Source: Candidatus Parcubacteria bacterium
GTDB taxonomy: Bacteria > Patescibacteriota > Saccharimonadia > UBA4664 > JBIOIQ01
Assembly: GCA_963718875.1 (NCBI GenBank)
Contig: OY970378.1
Location: 324,396 to 388,395, forward strand
Length of the DNA: 64,000 bases
Direction: 5' to 3'
The notes beneath the pieces are model-generated. The model was not told the origin of the DNA, did not search any database, and saw only the letters and a list, made by a program, of their open reading frames with translations. How positions within the stretch are numbered: position 1 is the stretch's first letter; each line of letters opens with the position of its first letter. Position numbers and translations under genes: made by a program. Below are positions 173 through 44,152 of this stretch, one piece after another.

Positions 173-601
173 ATGGCTAATTTGGCTACGAAAAATTTGG
201 CTACGAAAAACAGTGAAAAAAGAGTTGTAATACTTCATCTTGCAACAGTGTTTGCTGCCTTAGTATTTTCATATGTTTTTGGATGGATCGCGAACTTTAT
301 CGGTAATAATGATTTGATGTGTGCTGGTATAGGGAGTATAGGCGGCTGCGATCGGAACAACATATTTATATATTTGTTTGGTTTCTATTTTTCGCTCATA
401 TTCTGCTTAACATTTTTGCATTTTTTTTACCTTACAAATAAATTTCGCTTATATTTGTTTCTCGTAATGCCCTTATTGGCATTTGGGTCGTTAGAGTTGG
501 AGGTTCTTAAGATAGCCATCTTTTTTCTGGTGACTGCTATTTTATTAGGGGTTGCTTTTTCAAGGCTGCTTTTCTTATTGAAAAGCAATAGTAGGGCTTA
601 G
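173..601 (+). CDS. hypothetical polytopic membrane protein (start uncertain; ORF opens at 128)
   Basis: ORF 128-601 is hydrophobic throughout. The internal ATG at 173 precedes a short ANLATKN x2 repeat. Confidence 0.4.
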   Translation: MANLATKNLATKNSEKRVVILHLATVFAALVFSYVFGWIANFIGNNDLMCAGIGSIGGCDRNNIFIYLFGFYFSLIFCLTFLHFFYLTNKFRLYLFLVMPLLAFGSLELEVLKIAIFFLVTAILLGVAFSRLLFLLKSNSRA

Positions 602-1794
602 GCAGGTTGGTAAAACATAAGACCTAGCTTAATCTGGAGTGCGTCGTCAAAGTGACGAGGGTCGAGAGAGATGAGCTTTTTGGTTTTATCTAGGCGATAA
701 ATCAGGGTGTTGCGGTGGATATGGAGGTTTTTGGAGGCGTCTGTCAGGTTAAGGCCGCTGTCTAAAAAAACCTTAACTGTCTTATATAGTTGTTGATCTC
801 GCAACAGTGGGTGAAGTATTTGATGGGCAAGCTCGGCTTTACGATCTTGCCCAATGTTAGCCAGCGTCACAAACATTCCCACCTGCTTTACGTGATAAAC
901 GCGGTTGGTCCCCCAAACTTTTTTACCAACCGTGACAGCCAATTTGGCGTCTTGATAGCTCTTACGCAGACCGCCTAGGTTGGGATAATATTGCCCAACT
1001 CCCACCGTAAGATGGAATTTATGTTGTAAATAATTCAACATCTCATATACTTGCTGACCTTTTTCGGTCATAAAACGAATGGTGTTTAAGGTGTTGGCGC
1101 TGCTTCCAGCAATGCCTTTTAGGATTACAAAAGTATCTTCTCCCAGGTATGACACTATGTTTTCTTGGTTTTTATTGAACCCTTCTCTCAGTTTTAAAAT
1201 TATATTATCGATAGCAGTACGTAATGTAACGCGCTGCTCCTCAGATGACAGATGATCGTTTTCGGCCGAAACAATAGCCTCAAAGTCGGTTAATTTTGCC
1301 AATATTACGGCTTGAGTTGCCCGCAAATTGAGCTGTAAAATGTCGGCTTGGTGATAGGCCTCGTCGTAGTCTACGTGTGAGGCAGAAAGGAGATCCTTTA
1401 TAAAGTCGGCCCGCACAATTTCGGGCGACTGCATTTTATCGAGCAACAAGTATTGGTGGATAATAACTTCGGCAAGGCCTTGAAGTAGGCTAACAGTTTC
1501 TGTAGCTATGGTTTCGTCATTACCGGTAACTCCAAATACGCCAATTACTTGTTGCTCGTAAACAAAGGGAATCCATTCTACTTTGTCGCTACCCAAAGTT
1601 CCTGCTATTCGCTTGTCTTCTTGGCAGGCTTGCAGGGCCTCGGCCACAAACTTACCGTTACTGCGAGCGCTTCCTACCAGCAAGGTGCCGGTGGCGTTGG
1701 CAATTACTATTTCGCGGTCCAAAATGCTTTTGGCCTTGTCGCGGATTTGTTTAGCGAGTTCTTTTGTGAGTTCCATAATTTTATTGTTCAACAA
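598..1794 (-). CDS. CdaR/PucR-family transcriptional regulator
   Basis: 398 aa. C-terminal PucR-type HTH (LHIHRNTLIYRLDKTKKLISLDPRHFDDALQIKLGL) and N-terminal GGDEF-like sensory region typical of sugar-diacid regulator CdaR. Confidence 0.75.
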   Translation of the reverse strand: MLNNKIMELTKELAKQIRDKAKSILDREIVIANATGTLLVGSARSNGKFVAEALQACQEDKRIAGTLGSDKVEWIPFVYEQQVIGVFGVTGNDETIATETVSLLQGLAEVIIHQYLLLDKMQSPEIVRADFIKDLLSASHVDYDEAYHQADILQLNLRATQAVILAKLTDFEAIVSAENDHLSSEEQRVTLRTAIDNIILKLREGFNKNQENIVSYLGEDTFVILKGIAGSSANTLNTIRFMTEKGQQVYEMLNYLQHKFHLTVGVGQYYPNLGGLRKSYQDAKLAVTVGKKVWGTNRVYHVKQVGMFVTLANIGQDRKAELAHQILHPLLRDQQLYKTVKVFLDSGLNLTDASKNLHIHRNTLIYRLDKTKKLISLDPRHFDDALQIKLGLMFYQPA

Positions 1795-2929
1795 ACCGGG
1801 TGAATAATATAGCTAGCCGTATCTGTACAGCATCATCAAATCGTCGGGGATCCAGGCCAAGAGTTTCGGAGATACGATCAAGGCGATATACCAATGTATT
1901 GCGGTGAATACTAAGCTCTTCGGCAGTGCGGGTAAGGCTCATATCGTAATTAAAGAAGGCTTCGAGGGTTTGAATGATTTCACTATTTTCCCCTAGGCGG
2001 TCAAGCAGTTCGCGGCTGAAATAAATGTTGGTTTCATCGATACCAGAGAGCAGTGGGGCCACAACGCCAAAGTCGTCAATGCGGTAAATGCGATCGGTGC
2101 CCCACATTTGACCACCTAGTTCGATGGCCGAGATGGCTTCGGTATAGCTTGTACGCAAGCCTCCGAGTCCAGGATGATAGTTGCCGACGCCGACACTAGT
2201 TGGGAGTTTAAGCTCGGATTTAATGATGTCGTAGATGGTGTTGATGGACTTTTTGAAAGAATCGAGGCTTTCTTCTAGTGCGCCGTTACTGGCGAGGGAT
2301 TTGAGGATGCAAAACTTGTTTTGGCCAATGTAGGCTACGATGTTGTCGTAACTTGATGTGTAGAATGATCTTAAGCCGCGATCAATACCAGCTTTGTAGC
2401 GAGCGATGCGAATTTCGCGGTCACTGGAAGGGTCGGAAAATGAAGAGGTAAGGGCGGGATCCTCAACATAAATAACAATGGCGATGCGGGGAGCCGTTAG
2501 GTCGATATCAAAAAGACGAGCCTCGGCAATCAGGAGAGGCTCATCACTTAAAGATCGGTGAAGGATGTCATAAATAAACTTATCTAGGCGCTCTTCTTGG
2601 CGCGGAATTTGGTCGATCAAAATTGATTGGTGCATAACTAGCTCGGCAATGGAACGCACCAACGGAGTTATCTCCTCGTGGTTGGGCATGGCTTGAGCTA
2701 AGACAATGTAGCCCACTACTTGGCCGCCATAATTGAAAGGGATAGCCGTGCTTGTAAGCTCAAGATCAATCATTTCATCGGCCTGGGGATCGTTACTGGC
2801 CATAACCATGCCTCGGGGCTCGACGACGGAAAGCTCACGGTTAACTAAGCCTCCCACTTTTGCTCTAATCTTCTCAGCTATGTGTTGACTCAGCACCCCG
2901 TCACCTTCCGTTAGAATATGAATTAGCAA
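1781..2929 (-). CDS. CdaR/PucR-family transcriptional regulator (tandem paralog)
   Basis: 382 aa with the same architecture (LSIHRNTLVYRLDRISETLGLDPRRFDDAVQIRLAILF). Overlaps the previous gene by 14 nt. Confidence 0.75.
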   Translation of the reverse strand: MLIHILTEGDGVLSQHIAEKIRAKVGGLVNRELSVVEPRGMVMASNDPQADEMIDLELTSTAIPFNYGGQVVGYIVLAQAMPNHEEITPLVRSIAELVMHQSILIDQIPRQEERLDKFIYDILHRSLSDEPLLIAEARLFDIDLTAPRIAIVIYVEDPALTSSFSDPSSDREIRIARYKAGIDRGLRSFYTSSYDNIVAYIGQNKFCILKSLASNGALEESLDSFKKSINTIYDIIKSELKLPTSVGVGNYHPGLGGLRTSYTEAISAIELGGQMWGTDRIYRIDDFGVVAPLLSGIDETNIYFSRELLDRLGENSEIIQTLEAFFNYDMSLTRTAEELSIHRNTLVYRLDRISETLGLDPRRFDDAVQIRLAILFTRFVEQ

Positions 2930-4751: not shown

Positions 4752-4828
4752 GGGCCCTTAGCTCAGTTGGCTAGAGCGCTTCCTTGACGTGGAAGAGGTC
4801 AGAGGTTCGAGTCCTCTAGGGCCCACCA
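4752..4828 (+). tRNA. tRNA-Val (anticodon GAC)
   Basis: Cloverleaf folded by hand: acceptor GGGCCCT/AGGGCCC, anticodon stem CTTCC/GGAAG with loop TTGACGT, T-loop TTCGAGT, encoded CCA. Confidence 0.85.
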
Positions 4829-4866
4829 TTCGACTCACTTCGTTCGCTCATGGTAAACCATTAGCA
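4822..4866 (+). repeat. conserved 3'-flank module shared by tRNA-Val(GAC) and tmRNA (CACCATTCGACTCAC ... GCTCATGGTAAACCATT)
   Basis: Same module at 43715-43775, in both cases starting within the last bases of the RNA gene. Confidence 0.7.
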
Positions 4867-4885
4867 TGAATATGGGTCGAATGAT

Positions 4886-4903
4886 CCTGAGCGTAGTCGA
4901 AGG
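4886..4903. repeat. family C motif CCTGAGC-NN-GTCGAAGG, copy 1
   Basis: Other copies at 11599-11618, 16029-16088 (inverted pair forming a hairpin) and 43805-43822. Confidence 0.6.
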
Positions 4904-4980
4904 ACCAAAGCAATTTTCATTTTTAACAATTATCCAATTTTCAATTAATGAACGTGATTTCCTTGGCTAGGGGCAATTAG

Positions 4981-5044: not shown

Positions 5045-5120
5045 GGATCCGTAGCTCAGCGGTTAGAGTACTCGGTTCACATCCGAGGGGTCGGTGGTTC
5101 GAACCCACCCGGGTCCACCA
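5045..5120 (+). tRNA. tRNA-Val (anticodon CAC)
   Basis: Acceptor GGATCCG/CGGGTCC, anticodon stem CTCGG/CCGAG with loop TTCACAT, T-loop TTCGAAC, encoded CCA. Confidence 0.8.
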
Positions 5121-5170
5121 AAAGCAATTTTCATAATTTTTACTTTTAATTGTTTAAGGCAGGAGCAGTG

Positions 5171-6764: not shown

Positions 6765-7262
6765 ATGGCAGTCCGTACAACTGGTAAAGCGCTCATCGAT
6801 TTTTGGCAAAGCCCGTTCGTGGAGAGCAGGGTTTCAGTCAGAATGGCCGCCGATATGGCGACCGCCTGCCGGGAAGTACTTAGTGCCAGGTCAGATGGAA
6901 ATACAGTTGACCTGCGTACATGTCCAGTAAGTGAGCTCACCGGCAGTTTTATACAAGCGCATCCTGATCGCCCAAAGGCGACTCTGGCTGCATACAAGAG
7001 CCGCTTTAAAAAAGCGGTTCGTTTGTATTTGAGCTATCTGGAAAATCCTAGTGACTGGCCGGTGGACCAGCTTGAGTCAAAGGTCAAAAGTCAAAAGTCG
7101 AAGGTTGCCATGCAGGATTATCAGTTCCCGCTGAGGAGGGATTTTTTGCTTGCAGTAGGCTTGCCGTTGGACATTACTAAGGAAGAGGCGAGGCGGTTGG
7201 CGGCTTTTATAGAAAGTCTGGCATTTACGGACAATGAGCCCTTCGACAGGCTCAGGGAGTAA
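6765..7262 (+). CDS. hypothetical protein
   Basis: 165-aa ORF with AAGGAA Shine-Dalgarno. No recognisable motif. Confidence 0.5.
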   Translation: MAVRTTGKALIDFWQSPFVESRVSVRMAADMATACREVLSARSDGNTVDLRTCPVSELTGSFIQAHPDRPKATLAAYKSRFKKAVRLYLSYLENPSDWPVDQLESKVKSQKSKVAMQDYQFPLRRDFLLAVGLPLDITKEEARRLAAFIESLAFTDNEPFDRLRE

Positions 7263-11548: not shown

Positions 11549-11598
11549 CTAGCTCGCATACCATGATCCCGAACTTACTCCCTGATCCCGAACTTACT

Positions 11599-11618
11599 CC
11601 CTGAGCATTGTCGAAGGG
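11599..11618. repeat. family C motif, copy 2 (preceded by direct repeat GATCCCGAACTTACTCCCTGA x2 at 11565-11606)
   Basis: CCCTGAGCATTGTCGAAGGG. Confidence 0.6.
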
Positions 11619-15937: not shown

Positions 15938-15992
15938 TAAGTCAGACTTCAAATCGGATTGCTTTGGCTATCCAAGATTAAAGTCTGACTTA
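15938..15992. repeat. family B hairpin element (TAAGTCAGACTTCAAATCGGATTGCTTTGGCTATCCAAGATTAAAGTCTGACTTA)
   Basis: 11-bp inverted arms AAGTCAGACTT/AAGTCTGACTT. Confidence 0.6.
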
Positions 15993-16028
15993 TATTTACG
16001 CATTAGACACCAGCATTGCTACTTATTG

Positions 16029-16088
16029 CCTGAGCTTGTCGAAGGCCAGAAAAATGAGCCTGCTTTGACCCTTCGACTACGCTCAGGG
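16029..16088. repeat. family C motif, inverted pair forming a 17-bp-arm hairpin
   Basis: CCTGAGCTTGTCGAAGG ... CCCTTCGACTACGCTCAGG. Confidence 0.65.
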
Positions 16089-16128: not shown

Positions 16129-16184
16129 CAAAGTCAGGCTTCAAATCCAATTGCTTGATCATCCAAGATTAAAGTCTGACTTAC
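16129..16184. repeat. family B hairpin element, second copy in the same intergenic region
   Basis: CAAAGTCAGGCTTCAAATCCAATTGCTTGATCATCCAAGATTAAAGTCTGACTTAC. Confidence 0.6.
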
Positions 16185-16307
16185 ATTAACGCTATTGAAT
16201 CCGATAGGCAGACGTATTAAGAACTAAAACAAAAAACCGCCCGATGTTATCAAGCGGCTCTTTGCTTATTTTGTTTTAACCAAAAATGCGGAACAAAAAG
16301 AATGAAT

Positions 16308-43217: not shown

Positions 43218-43324
43218 TTCCCGCTCCTAGCGTCGACGTTTCTGCCTGCGGATGCAGGTTTAAAATATAATAATATAATTGCTAGCACTTGTAAAATATT
43301 CTTGATTAACTACCCTCAAAAATG

Positions 43325-43330
43325 CTATAA
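43325..43330 (+). promoter_or_regulatory. TATAAT -10 box for ssrA
   Basis: TATAAT lies 12 nt upstream of the tmRNA 5' GGGG. Confidence 0.4.
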
Positions 43331-43342
43331 TTTTGAACACAT

Positions 43343-43721
43343 GGGGCTGATATTAGCTTCGACGTGAGGACATTTACAAACTACTCGGCAGGTCGCAGGC
43401 AGGCGTTACTATCCAAACAATAAACAAATCACAACTTTGTTTCACGGGTGAAGTCGCTCTTTGCAGTTCCTTCATTCGCACCTGCTTTCGCCTAAACACG
43501 AAAGCCATCGTCTCCCTGATGCCCGGTAGGGGACAGACGGTGCCAATTATCGGGACGCTTCCCGCCATTTGCCTCATTGGTGGGACTAAGACTTGAGGTT
43601 GCTGCGTTTGATTATCTTGTCTGTTCTAAGATCAGCGCTTAAGACAATTGAATAGGATAAGCCTGTAGAAGAGTAGTGCGTAACTTCGCGGACCGGGGTG
43701 CAATTCCCCGCAGCTCCACCA
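43343..43721 (+). ncRNA. ssrA: transfer-messenger RNA (tmRNA, SsrA)
   Basis: 5' GGGGCTGATATTAGCTTCGACGTGAGG and 3' GGACCGGGGTGCAATTCCCCGCAGCTCCACCA (T-arm plus acceptor plus CCA). The 5' and 3' ends pair as a tRNA-like domain. I did not resolve the tag reading frame. Confidence 0.8.
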
Positions 43722-43775
43722 TTCGACTCACTTTAACTATCGTTAAAGCTCGCTCATGGTAAACCATTCTCCTGT
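43715..43775 (+). repeat. conserved 3'-flank module, tmRNA copy
   Basis: See the copy at 4822-4866. Confidence 0.7.
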
Positions 43776-43804
43776 AAAAAGTGAGGAGAATGACCCTGAG
43801 CTTG

Positions 43805-43822
43805 TCGAAGGGCCATTAAAAG
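43805..43822. repeat. family C motif, copy 4 (downstream of tmRNA)
   Basis: CCCTGAGCTTGTCGAAGGG. Confidence 0.6.
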
Positions 43823-43852: not shown

Positions 43853-43883
43853 CAAAAAAACCTGAGGGAACTCAGGTTTTTGT
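43853..43883. terminator. bidirectional terminator hairpin after ssrA
   Basis: AAAAAAACCTGAGggaaCTCAGGTTTTTGT. Confidence 0.5.
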
Positions 43884-43896
43884 ATTTAAGGAATTT

Positions 43897-44152
43897 ATGA
43901 AGCCTTGGTTTGTTTATATCGCAAAAGCGCGAACTGGCAGGTATTACACAGGAATCACGACTGATTCCGACGAAAGAATCAAAAAACACAATGAGGGCAA
44001 AGGGGCTATGTTTGCAATTGAGCAAGGACCCTTCGAGCTAATATTGTTCTGAGCCTTTTGAAGAAAAATCTGAGGCTAGAATCCGCGAAATCCAAATCAA
44101 GGGCTGGAGTAAGATTAAAAAAGAAAAACTGATTAACGGTGAGTGGGAATAA
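43897..44152 (+). pseudogene. GIY-YIG nuclease-superfamily protein (YhbQ/UPF0213-like), disrupted by a single frameshift
   Basis: Frame 1 reads MKPWFVYIAKARTGRYYTGITTDSDERIKKHNEGKGAMFAIEQGPFELILF then stops. The conserved C-terminus SEPFEEKSEARIREIQIKGWSKIKKEKLINGEWE continues in the +1 frame from about 44041. Confidence 0.55.

Follow-up and report, generated by a model that had tools for sequence, protein, structure and literature searches.

Hairpin modules behind two RNA genes of the window

The tRNA-Val(GAC) and tmRNA genes of the window (the whole 64-kb stretch of DNA analysed here) each end in CCA, and in both this CCA is followed by a module of about 80-95 nt (4829-4906 and 43722-43815). 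Past each CCA the identical blocks come in the order CCACCATTCGACTCACTT, TCGCTCATGGTAAACCATT and GAATGA-YCCTGAGC-N-GTCGAAGGRCCA. The sequence-only reading had reported one identical module 3' of both genes, about 38.9 kb apart in direct orientation, and we confirmed this: the copies share these blocks, lie 38,893 bp apart on the same strand, and are exactly the two full copies found in the window by the covariance model R1. The same model gave no matches in 363 kb of unrelated metagenomic DNA, used as a negative control. Likewise, GCTCATGGTAAACCATT has two sites in 64 kb, both in module copies, where only about 0.16 would be expected by chance even with three mismatches. The position previously given for the second family C motif (43805-43822) had to be corrected to 43794-43812. 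The features are as follows.

4752-4828, plus strand: tRNA-Val(GAC) gene (ARAGORN; Rfam, 69 bits); its 3' ACCA is one closing-stem strand of the first hairpin unit
4829-4906, plus strand: module copy 1, without ORF (R1 match 4826-4907, 76.6 bits)
4826-4853, minus strand: inverted hairpin unit (A-box) of copy 1, minus-strand reading CCAT-GAGC-GAACGAAGTGA-GTCGA-ATGG (unit regular expression; reverse-strand R1 sub-hit)
4827-4883, plus strand: P1 stem of copy 1, 4827-4838 pairing with 4872-4883 (RNAfold, RNAalifold, pair counts)
4885-4904, plus strand: direct hairpin unit (family C) of copy 1, TCCT-GAGC-GTA-GTCGA-AGGA; its stem covaries among copies
7239-7257, minus strand: solo family-C unit, CCCT-GAGC-CT-GTCGA-AGGG, intergenic or at a gene 3' end
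11599-11618, plus strand: solo family-C unit, intergenic, adjoined by a 19-nt tandem repeat
16028-16088, both strands: inverted family-C doublet (16028-16046 plus, 16069-16088 minus) between convergent genes
43343-43721, plus strand: tmRNA gene (Rfam RF00023, 105.6 bits), undetected by ARAGORN
43722-43815, plus strand: module copy 2 (R1 match 43719-43815, 83 bits), between the mature tmRNA 3' end and the terminator
43719-43759, minus strand: inverted hairpin unit of copy 2, CCAT-GAGC-...-GTCGA-ATGG with an apical hairpin
43794-43812, plus strand: direct hairpin unit (family C) of copy 2, CCCT-GAGC-TT-GTCGA-AGGG
43856-43881, bidirectional: intrinsic-terminator-like hairpin between the module and the GIY-YIG pseudogene, with weak matches to terminator-bearing sRNA models
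43897-44152, plus strand: Slx1/UPF0213-type stand-alone GIY-YIG gene, frameshifted near 44045-44052 (translation, family alignment)

The P1 stem of copy 1 takes in the CA of the tRNA CCA and encloses the P3 hairpin ATGG-TAAA-CCAT (4850-4861). Copy 2 (fold z = -4.96) has two additional hairpins, P2 (43731-43748) and TTCTCCT/AGGAGAA (43767-43790), and a promoter scan gave a promoter-like site at 43302-43331, ahead of the tmRNA gene. The 64 kb hold eight units, including the doublet and the units of the modules. The inventory of the window is an ORF-less copy at tRNA-Val, a complete but decaying copy at the tmRNA, and four solo units/doublets elsewhere.

A filled and an empty site could be compared within the window. 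In the filled site CCA is followed by 78 nt and then by AAAGCAATTTTCAT (4907-4920), whereas in the flank of tRNA-Val(CAC) the CCA is directly followed by AAAGCAATTTTCAT (5118-5134). Compared in this way with the flank of its paralogue tRNA-Val(CAC), copy 1 behaves like an insertion of 78 nt.

Some Saccharibacteria copies carry a stem ACTCGCTTCG...CGAAGCGAGT followed by TTTT (L031, L042, L047, L068, L079, L113), as would a Rho-independent terminator module common to stable-RNA genes. However, a U-tract is absent from both window copies, and no site within the module came up in the terminator scan. A separate canonical terminator (43856-43881) follows the tmRNA copy, and a second tRNA gene comes after the one at tRNA-Val. 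The terminator reading is very improbable in general and already contradicted for the window copies.

Anatomy of the hairpin unit

The whole module consists of repeats of one REP-like hairpin unit, s-GAGC-x-GTCGA-s', in which s and s' are the complementary halves of a 4-bp stem and x, between GAGC and (GA)GTCGA, is either a variable apical hairpin or a short loop. In the first unit, which is inverted, the CCA of the tRNA plus T pairs with the downstream ATGG to form the closing stem. Read on the minus strand, this A-box matches the unit pattern of family C. A degenerate unit in the opposite orientation comes second and the direct unit (family C) third. The first and the degenerate unit form a REPIN-like palindrome, with (CA)TTCGACTCNN pairing with NNGAGTCGAA(TG) in P1 and ATGG-TAAA-CCAT as P3.

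The stems covary. Across copies the P4 stem occurs as CCCT/AGGG, CTCT/AGAG, TCCT/AGGA, CAGT/ACTG and other variants, all of them complementary, and covariation was also seen at P1 positions 12-13. We counted 26 double-change cells against 6.6 in shuffles, and none of the 500 shuffles reached the observed value. Pairing was found in 93% of the cells, compared to 28-42% when the partner was slid. RNAalifold recovered P1 and P4 independently, covariation included.

The units also have a preferred strand. C-GNA-G loops lie on the unit strand in both orientations (31 vs 2 for the inverted unit, 18 vs 3 for the direct unit), and the asymmetry of folding energy agrees with this bias. For the inverted unit the favoured strand is antisense to the tRNA transcript.

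Tandem A-boxes were found at four loci (L063, L026, L029, L112) and mini-hairpins nested within P4 at five (L017, L044, L059, L082, L100), while in L014, L105 and L021 the A-box alone makes up the entire spacer between two tRNAs. At the orthologous tRNA-Val loci L007 and L024 the apical hairpin of P4 is swapped wholesale; one of the two has the ORF and the other does not, and their downstream flanks are non-homologous. Solo units and doublets lie in intergenic DNA in either orientation. The tandem A-boxes, the nested mini-hairpins, the A-box-only spacers, the P4 swap, the filled/empty site and these scattered units are signs of DNA-level dynamics.

Rfam 15 (cmscan at the gathering threshold and at E <= 10) returned only the tRNA and tmRNA genes and chance-level matches. 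A hammerhead-like core seen by eye in CUGAGC...GUCGAAG was rejected, as it lacks the CUGANGA...GAAA spacing and has no Rfam match.

Anchoring at tRNA and tmRNA 3' ends

The two longest module blocks were used as a search pattern on the GTDB genome contigs. More than 118 loci were found among the matches listed, nearly all in Patescibacteria (Peribacteria/Peregrinibacteria and Saccharibacteria), while a few of those listed come from other CPR phyla, from Omnitrophota or from single MAGs of other kinds. At least 82 of the 123 listed matches have the module at offset 0 from a tRNA or tmRNA 3' end called by ARAGORN, and 28 anticodons were represented. The other listed matches mostly follow tmRNAs that ARAGORN misses or duplicated 3' fragments of tRNAs. 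Since the stems are complementary and the pattern contained ATGG, a CCAT in the left flank is partly built into the matches; the coincidence with tRNA ends is not.

Module-bearing genes prefer ACCA. The genes with a module end in ACCA 83 times, in TCCA five times and never in GCCA or CCCA, compared to 46, 10, 11 and 6 for the genes without one (Fisher p = 7e-7). The module always has the orientation of its RNA gene and begins at the first trailer nucleotide, and the exact abutment on the mature 3' end is also seen in three tmRNA genes without an encoded CCA (L046, L096, L097). It is missing from 79 of the 170 tRNA/tmRNA genes in the fetched loci, and of the window's three tRNA genes only one has it. 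The more conservative proposal of the sequence-only reading, a shared downstream processing or termination module, therefore stood in part: the module does recur at tRNA and tmRNA 3' ends, but these counts do not agree with a generic trailer that follows most tRNA genes, nor does the lack of a U-tract agree with termination.

The same reading had seen in the two copies a possible att-like footprint of island integration. Direct repeats that begin where a tRNA and a tmRNA gene end, both classic integration sites, would indeed be expected of attL and attR of a 39-kb island moved by a site-specific recombinase. However, tRNA-Val and tmRNA differ, and the repeat begins after the CCA and lies wholly outside both genes, with no gene-specific 3' sequence; all that the two genes share is CCACCA, the universal ending of both kinds of RNA. 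Pfam scans of the 23 ORFs flanking both copies, covering about 5 kb around each, detected no tyrosine or serine recombinase or other integrase. ThrRS and other housekeeping genes lie in the interval, as had been noticed before, and the module stands beside 28 tRNA species; more than 100 other genomes have it, after dozens of different tRNA genes. The island reading is already refuted, and we give it practically no probability.

Copies of the module are diverged. The best pair from the same genome is 85% identical, the median over all pairs is 64%, and among the loci compared no genome contained near-identical copies. There is therefore no evidence for recent transposition. The confinement of conservation to the blocks in such old copies fits a host function too. 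We saw no target-site duplication and could define no right boundary of the ORF cassette. A pattern scan of viral contigs and a phage BLAST revealed no phage or viral carriers, and a metagenome search with the SDR gene upstream of tRNA-Val found only distant FabG-like relatives (<=64% identity) without synteny.

The anchoring could also be read at the RNA level. As a cis-acting trailer or leader, the module would act within the primary tRNA/tmRNA transcript, either by positioning an endonuclease cut exactly at the mature 3' end or as a 5' leader or stabiliser of the GIY-YIG mRNA. Because P1 starts at the CCA, the module could direct an endonuclease to the exact mature 3' end; the cut could be made by the GIY-YIG protein itself, or by RNase P if it read the 12-bp P1, with ACC after it, as an acceptor/T-stem mimic. 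Two features would be expected of an RNA-processing element: the exact abutment, CCA-less tmRNAs included, and the roughly 12-bp P1 stem, which pairs with the CA of the CCA. The constant co-orientation with the RNA gene and the covariation of P1 and P4 point in the same direction, as does the tmRNA copy, which is co-transcribed since it lies upstream of the terminator. Conservation of the blocks alone in old, diverged copies is also typical of functional RNAs, and a TrmH-GIY-YIG fusion described in the literature hints at a possible role of bacterial Slx1-like proteins in RNA metabolism (PMC1564403). However, only a subset of tRNAs carries the module, no Rfam ribozyme or RNA family matches it, and a single unit, present in either orientation and at sites away from tRNA genes as well, explains all the conserved blocks. 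Moreover, the C-GNA-G loops and the lower folding energy of the inverted unit are antisense to the tRNA transcript. We regard the RNA-level reading as possible, though on balance doubtful.

The GIY-YIG gene and the nature of the element

A frameshifted GIY-YIG gene beyond the tmRNA copy had already been noticed, and our analysis confirms it (frame change near 44045-44052). Once repaired, the window sequence matches Pfam PF01541 with E = 2e-15; its ORF is separated from the module by the terminator. In the complete form of the element a gene of 84-87 aa, of the Slx1/UPF0213 type, begins 30-80 nt past the direct unit on the same strand. Among the pattern-selected loci 22 modules (about one copy in five) are linked to this ORF, which lies 47-144 nt past the A-box and always on the same strand. 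When sampled by protein similarity instead, all five distinct homologues had an R1 module (45-69 bits) just upstream, and four of the five abut an intact tRNA. By this genomic linkage, the GIY-YIG gene turns out to be a probable integral part of the complete element.

The encoded protein is the catalytic domain alone, with no separate DNA-binding domain. PF01541 matches (E = 1e-14 to 1e-15) indicate a GIY-YIG domain with intact motifs, and VYI, YTGI, R..HN and RE.QIK, with the catalytic Tyr, Tyr, Arg and Glu, are conserved in 110 homologues. This stand-alone domain is closest to BH0048 and EF2693 (phmmer E = 2.4e-14 to 1zg2 and 3.4e-7 to 1ywl), and PHROG, PADLOC and NCBIfam have no family for it. 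One identical protein (P0077) was present in 24 contigs. Its context was the same in 24 of 24, which rules out spread of the identical protein over several loci; that locus is stable and not jumping. An in-frame N-terminal extension from the ATG in CGAATGAC was also considered and dropped, because the length of P4 varies and the reading frame is not conserved.

Two observations concern annotation and assembly. The element gives rise to spurious ORFs and N-terminal extensions, such as 'MTLS...KSKSP' from the ATG in CGAATGAC, and many GIY-YIG homologues are recorded only on contigs shorter than 2 kb, so the element may break assemblies.

To our knowledge, the function of the widespread bacterial Slx1/UPF0213 family is not known. 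The Slx1/YhbQ/UPF0213 proteins are regarded as repair-type and not selfish (PMC1564403; PMC7017083). YhbQ of E. coli, YazA of B. subtilis, BH0048 and EF2693 share domain and family with the protein described here (phmmer E = 2e-14 to 1zg2), but the accessible literature treats them as repair-type housekeeping genes, and in it we found no tRNA-linked hairpin module.

The closest parallel in organisation is the REP/REPIN system of gamma-proteobacteria with its RAYT transposase (PMC3116915, PMC3337134). Both have short imperfect-palindrome units scattered in intergenic DNA, inverted doublets that form long hairpins, many gene-less copies next to an associated nuclease gene that is present once or a few times with units on its flanks, and long-term persistence instead of bursts of identical copies. 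However, the partner here is a minimal GIY-YIG (Slx1-like) nuclease and not an IS200/IS605-type tyrosine transposase, and we saw no RAYT in the window or next to the copies. The units include a large subfamily attached to the CCA ends of tRNA and tmRNA genes, their sequence is shared throughout whole phyla, and their mobility is putative. Near-identical copies within one genome, as known from REPINs and RAYTs, were not found (85% for the best pair, median 64%).

Phage T4 SegB is a free-standing GIY-YIG homing endonuclease encoded within a tRNA gene cluster (PMC2330249). With genes of this type the element shares a small GIY-YIG gene among or beside tRNA genes and a patchy presence in related genomes. 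The enzymes of the Seg and I-TevI type, in contrast, are members of the UvrC/HEase branch with a DNA-binding domain at the C-terminus, whereas the protein of 84-87 aa falls into the Slx1/UPF0213 branch (PDB 1zg2, 1ywl). The conserved hairpin module and its many copies without an ORF also set the element apart from SegB.

The PATEs and MITEs derived from IS200/IS605 may resemble the element in their subterminal hairpins, in their position 3' of a fixed tetranucleotide without target duplication and in a strand-specific hairpin signal; here, the ACCA preference, the hairpins and the lack of target-site duplication would correspond. This raises the possibility of a non-autonomous element of the IS200/IS605 or REP/RAYT type, inserted 3' of ACCA by a Y1 transposase encoded elsewhere, with the GIY-YIG gene as a passenger or neighbour. 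Hairpin units, inverted doublets and the position directly 3' of a fixed short sequence would fit, and the right end of many copies is also CCA, while the A-box terminus is AACCA and is re-targeted in tandem arrays. However, we saw a Y1 transposase neither in the window nor beside any copy, and no TnpA or TnpB was found. The GIY-YIG gene takes the place of the transposase, the target is a tRNA 3' end, and the gene keeps a fixed distance and orientation to the module in every complete copy, with the module upstream in five of five protein-sampled cases. This makes a Y1-driven element quite unlikely.

With moderate confidence, at about an even chance, we favour the reading that the two stretches belong, independently of each other, to a large family of compact DNA elements, mainly of Patescibacteria (CPR), which are anchored on tRNA and tmRNA ends in ...ACCA, linked to a nuclease and REPIN-like. 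The hairpin units would form DNA-level structures, namely hairpins, either single-stranded or cruciform, whose C-GNA-G apical loops are very stable, and the co-encoded structure-specific nuclease may recognise and cleave them. Its gene would be expressed through read-through from the strong tRNA/tmRNA promoter. The nuclease would then drive copy-and-paste or gene-conversion spread and the turnover of units, and the ORF-less copies would depend on it as non-autonomous derivatives, much like REPINs on RAYTs. An anchor placed exactly at the CCA would spare the RNA gene. What counts against such a DNA element, besides the divergence of the copies and the lack of a target-site duplication, is that the nuclease is minimal (84-87 aa), has no DNA-binding domain and comes from a family seen as repair-type.

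Our literature search found no description of the element, which is apparently undescribed. CPR bacteria have reduced RNase repertoires. Tentatively, and with rather low confidence, we propose that the hairpin unit and the minimal Slx1-like nuclease make up either a nuclease-driven repeat system, a GIY-YIG counterpart of REPIN/RAYT that targets the universally conserved ACCA of tRNA and tmRNA gene ends, or an RNA device that sets tRNA 3' ends in CPR as an RNase P mimic or as the substrate of a GIY-YIG ribonuclease.

The element could mislead island finders that are keyed on repeats at tRNA and tmRNA genes. If our interpretation is true, it would add a repeat system, mobile or persistent, in which a GIY-YIG nuclease takes the part of a tyrosine transposase, and would account for a conserved, lineage-wide feature of CPR tRNA/tmRNA loci. 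It would also give the Slx1/UPF0213 family its first concrete genomic context and a candidate substrate, the hairpins at tRNA ends.

Module copies behind tRNA-Val(GAC) and tmRNA

The sequence-only reading had described matching blocks directly 3′ of tRNA-Val(GAC) and tmRNA, in direct orientation about 38.9 kb apart. These blocks are real, lie on the same strand and are spaced by 38,893 bp. Immediately 3′ of the CCA both loci carry TTCGACTCAC(TT), then TCGCTCATGGTAAACCATT and a variable stretch; an optional hairpin (43731-43748) separates these two blocks in the tmRNA copy only. The last common block is GAATGA-YCCTGAGC-N-GTCGAAGGRCCA. The family C motif of the tmRNA copy, formerly placed at 43805-43822, is at 43794-43812. 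The 17-mer GCTCATGGTAAACCATT does not occur in the 64 kb beyond the two copies, and the covariance model R1 (built from the alignment A3 of 26 copies) found exactly two full modules in the window, with weaker reverse-strand hits on the same two. The source organism is probably a Saccharibacterium: at the nucleotide level the window is most similar to L072 and L095, both Saccharimonadales loci, and it has a GC content of 45%.

4752-4828: tRNA-Val(GAC), called by ARAGORN
5045-5120: tRNA-Val(CAC); module copy 1 lies between the two tRNA-Val genes
43302-43331: promoter-like site (good) of tmRNA
43343-43721: tmRNA (Rfam RF00023, 105.6 bits), missed by ARAGORN; T-loop GGGGTGCAATTCCCC
43856-43881: bidirectional terminator hairpin

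Two adjoining PucR/CdaR-type regulator paralogues (598-2929, minus strand) are located upstream of the tRNA-Val locus.

The sequence-only reading had preferred a shared processing or termination module, and in some Saccharibacteria relatives a U-tract does follow the stem formed by the A-box, the inverted hairpin unit at the CCA. For the window copies the terminator explanation fails. Neither contains a terminator, and no terminator-like site was found between tRNA-Val(GAC) and tRNA-Val(CAC). The tmRNA copy lies between the mature 3′ end and the separate terminator, which places it in the primary transcript and means that it is itself no terminator. The att-like repeats of an island, also proposed, are rejected: there is no integrase near either copy, the stretch between them carries ThrRS and other housekeeping genes, and the family is very large. 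Rfam gave no match to either copy, whether with the gathering threshold or with E <= 10, and no description of the element was found in Rfam or in the full-text literature, a search outside which most subscription journals fall.

Architecture of the module and its hairpin unit

About 60 copies were sorted into blocks and 26 of these were aligned. The consensus begins CCA, TTCGACTC-N-(P2 hairpin, optional)-(C)TC-GCTCATGG-TAAA-CCA-(variable) and continues NNGAGTCGAATGA-(4-bp stem)-GAGC-(loop or hairpin)-GTCGA-(complementary 4-bp stem)-CC. RNAalifold independently predicted P1, (C)ATTCGACTCNN paired with NNGAGTCGAAT(G), which takes in the CA of the tRNA CCA, and P4, the 4-bp stem around GAGC...GTCGA. 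Pairing holds in 93% of cells, compared to 28-42% with a slid partner, and 26 cells are double changes against 6.6 +/- 2.1 after shuffling (0/500 shuffles reach 26). P4 occurs as CCCT/AGGG, CTCT/AGAG, TCCT/AGGA, TTCT/AGAA, CAGT/ACTG, CCCC/GGGG, TCTC/GAGA and GCCG/CGGC. P3 is ATGG-TAAA-CCAT; in L119, L062, L080 and L215 its loop is CAAG, CGGG or a whole hairpin. These variants fall outside our search pattern, so the family extends beyond the copies that it captured.

The minus strand of the A-box reads CCAT-GAGC-(hairpin)-GTCGA-ATGG and matches the family C unit CCCT-GAGC-(..)-GTCGA-AGGG, so the module consists of three parts derived from one unit. A single hairpin unit accounts for every conserved block. 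The first part, an inverted unit, is closed by a stem in which the tRNA CCA plus T pairs with ATGG of GCTCATGG; the second is a degenerate unit pointing the other way (3′ half GAGTCGA-ATGA) and the third is a direct unit. The inverted and degenerate units form a REPIN-like palindrome, from which P1 and P3 originate. The window holds eight units, namely two A-boxes, two P4 units, two solo units and one doublet, the last three elements all being intergenic or at a gene 3′ end.

7239-7257, minus strand: solo unit
11599-11618, plus strand: solo unit
16028-16088: inverted doublet of units

Direct repeats of ~63 nt (15939-16001 and 16131-16192, 88-94% identical), each containing the inverted repeat TAAGTCAGACTTCAA/TTAAAGTCTGACTTA, lie on either side of the doublet. 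A 19-nt tandem repeat, CC[AC]TGATCCCGAACTTACT x2 (11561-11598), immediately abuts the plus-strand solo unit, so that CCCTGA is present three times.

In either orientation the unit strand (GAGC to GTCGA) has C-GNA-G triloops as its apical loops: 31 vs 2 for the inverted unit in minus-strand reading and 18 vs 3 for the direct unit in plus-strand reading. By folding energy, the minus strand gives the more stable P2 (20 vs 8, p = 0.001) and the plus strand the more stable P4 (42 vs 12, p = 3e-4). In the inverted unit, the strand so favoured runs antisense to the tRNA transcript. As DNA, GNA hairpins of the d(GCGAAGC) type have exceptional stability. The main rival reading, which is less likely, is a role at the RNA level, in tRNA/tmRNA 3′-end processing or as an mRNA leader: the module abuts the mature end exactly, P1 pairs with CA and conservation is block-wise, whereas the asymmetry of loops and folding energies, modest in effect size, favours a DNA-level unit working in both orientations over a trailer RNA. 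The DNA-repeat and RNA-level readings are not mutually exclusive and both may hold.

Distribution at gene ends and possible turnover

A scan with TTCGACTC-N(5-32)-GCTCATGGTAAACC, in which each GTDB species was represented by a single genome, gave at least 118 loci. The matches listed come chiefly from Peribacteria/Peregrinibacteria and Saccharibacteria, with a few from Magasanikbacteria, Vogelbacteria, Howlettbacteria, Altimarinota and Omnitrophota, and single MAGs labelled PVC group, Actinomycetota, Limnocylindria and Gammaproteobacteria. In 82 of the 123 matches listed the module starts at the first base past an ARAGORN-called gene (28 anticodons plus tmRNA). Most of the remainder follow tmRNAs found by Rfam and missed by ARAGORN; others follow a duplicated 3′ fragment (T-arm, acceptor strand, CCA) of the upstream tRNA or tmRNA, 40-1700 nt past the intact gene. 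Where tmRNA lacks an encoded CCA (L046, L096, L097) the module begins immediately after the discriminator base, so the abutting CCA is the last two acceptor-stem Cs and the discriminator A.

A generic 3′ trailer is contradicted by tRNA-Val(CAC) and tRNA-Pro, which lack the module in the window, as do 79/170 tRNA/tmRNA genes in the fetched loci of the matches listed. There, module-bearing genes end in ACCA 83, TCCA 5, GCCA 0 and CCCA 0 times, and module-less genes 46, 10, 11 and 6 times (Fisher p = 7e-7).

Tandem diverged partial tRNAs (anticodon arm to CCA) stand between intact tRNA and module at L105:6124-6409 (minus strand), L092:5590-5823 and L108:7349-7546 (minus strand), the L108 pseudo-copy having a hairpin inserted in its T-loop. 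A minihelix-like pseudo-tRNA, GGGGGCG-hairpin-CGTCTCCACCA, adjoins tRNA-Ala at L025:3245-3283 and is followed by the module; it also occurs downstream of the module in L034. Its G3:U70-type pair is the alanine identity element. A LOOT RNA (Rfam RF03000, 92.7 bits) lies at L046:2547-2670 (minus strand), in a Saccharibacteria MAG, immediately downstream of the tmRNA gene and A-box. Directly after tRNA-Leu(TAG) in L088, CCA is followed by TTCGACTCGAATG..., both P1 strands fused with nothing between; this minimal remnant could be the deletion footprint of a module.

Several arrangements speak for turnover at the DNA level. A-boxes are in tandem in L063, L026, L029 and L112, each ending AACCA and recreating the target, and an A-box alone forms the entire spacer between two tRNAs in L014, L105 and L021. 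Mini-hairpins are nested within P4 (L017, L044, L059, L082, L100), some ORFs have duplicated tRNA 3′ fragments around them (L018, L044, L030) and the P4 apical hairpin is swapped wholesale between the orthologous tRNA-Val loci L007 and L024. In the window, tRNA-Val(CAC) presents an empty site, CCA followed by AAAGCAATTTTCAT, and tRNA-Val(GAC) a filled one, with 78 nt between CCA and this 13-mer, which has no third occurrence there.

Against turnover, no same-genome module copies exceed 85% identity, one identical GIY-YIG protein has the same context every time, and neither a target duplication nor a right boundary of the ORF cassette is definable. The family thus seems to be old and long-lasting, conserved only in blocks, and not to have undergone a recent burst.

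The associated GIY-YIG nuclease gene

With one intact ORF, tblastn gave 26 matches in the pattern-selected loci listed; in 22 of them the ORF starts 47-144 nt past an A-box, always on the same strand. The protein (84-87 aa) has only a GIY-YIG domain (PF01541, E about 1e-14). Among solved structures it is closest to BH0048 (1zg2) and EF2693 (1ywl), both bacterial Slx1-like proteins, and no NCBIfam, PHROG or PADLOC family matches it. A word-indexed search returned 389 homologues, nearly all from CPR bacteria; the family conserves the GIY, YIG, Arg and Glu motifs. In a sample chosen by protein, independently of the module (P0077, P0096, P0071, P0107, P0055), an R1 module (45-69 bits) ends shortly upstream of the ATG in all five, and abuts an intact tRNA in four (Leu-TAA, Ala-CGC, Lys-TTT, Gly-TCC).

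As the sequence-only reading had noted, a frameshifted copy lies beyond the tmRNA module (ORF 43897-44152, one frameshift). It is decaying, with the terminator separating module from ORF.

In L215 tRNA-Met is followed first by a different hairpin repeat that abuts the CCA, CCA then CGTAAA...TTTACGTGG, and then by a second GIY-YIG paralogue, so a GIY-YIG gene behind a tRNA with a CCA-using hairpin is a theme broader than the module. This repeat, CCA then CGTAAAnn...nnTTTACGTGG, is seen in L215:290-500 and L073:381-497 with CACGTGGCG repeats.

In the best reading, to which we give an even chance, the module belongs to a family of REPIN-like DNA hairpin units that is anchored on tRNA ends and linked to a structure-specific GIY-YIG nuclease. 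The nuclease would recognise the hairpin units, its gene would be expressed by read-through, and the units may be mobile.
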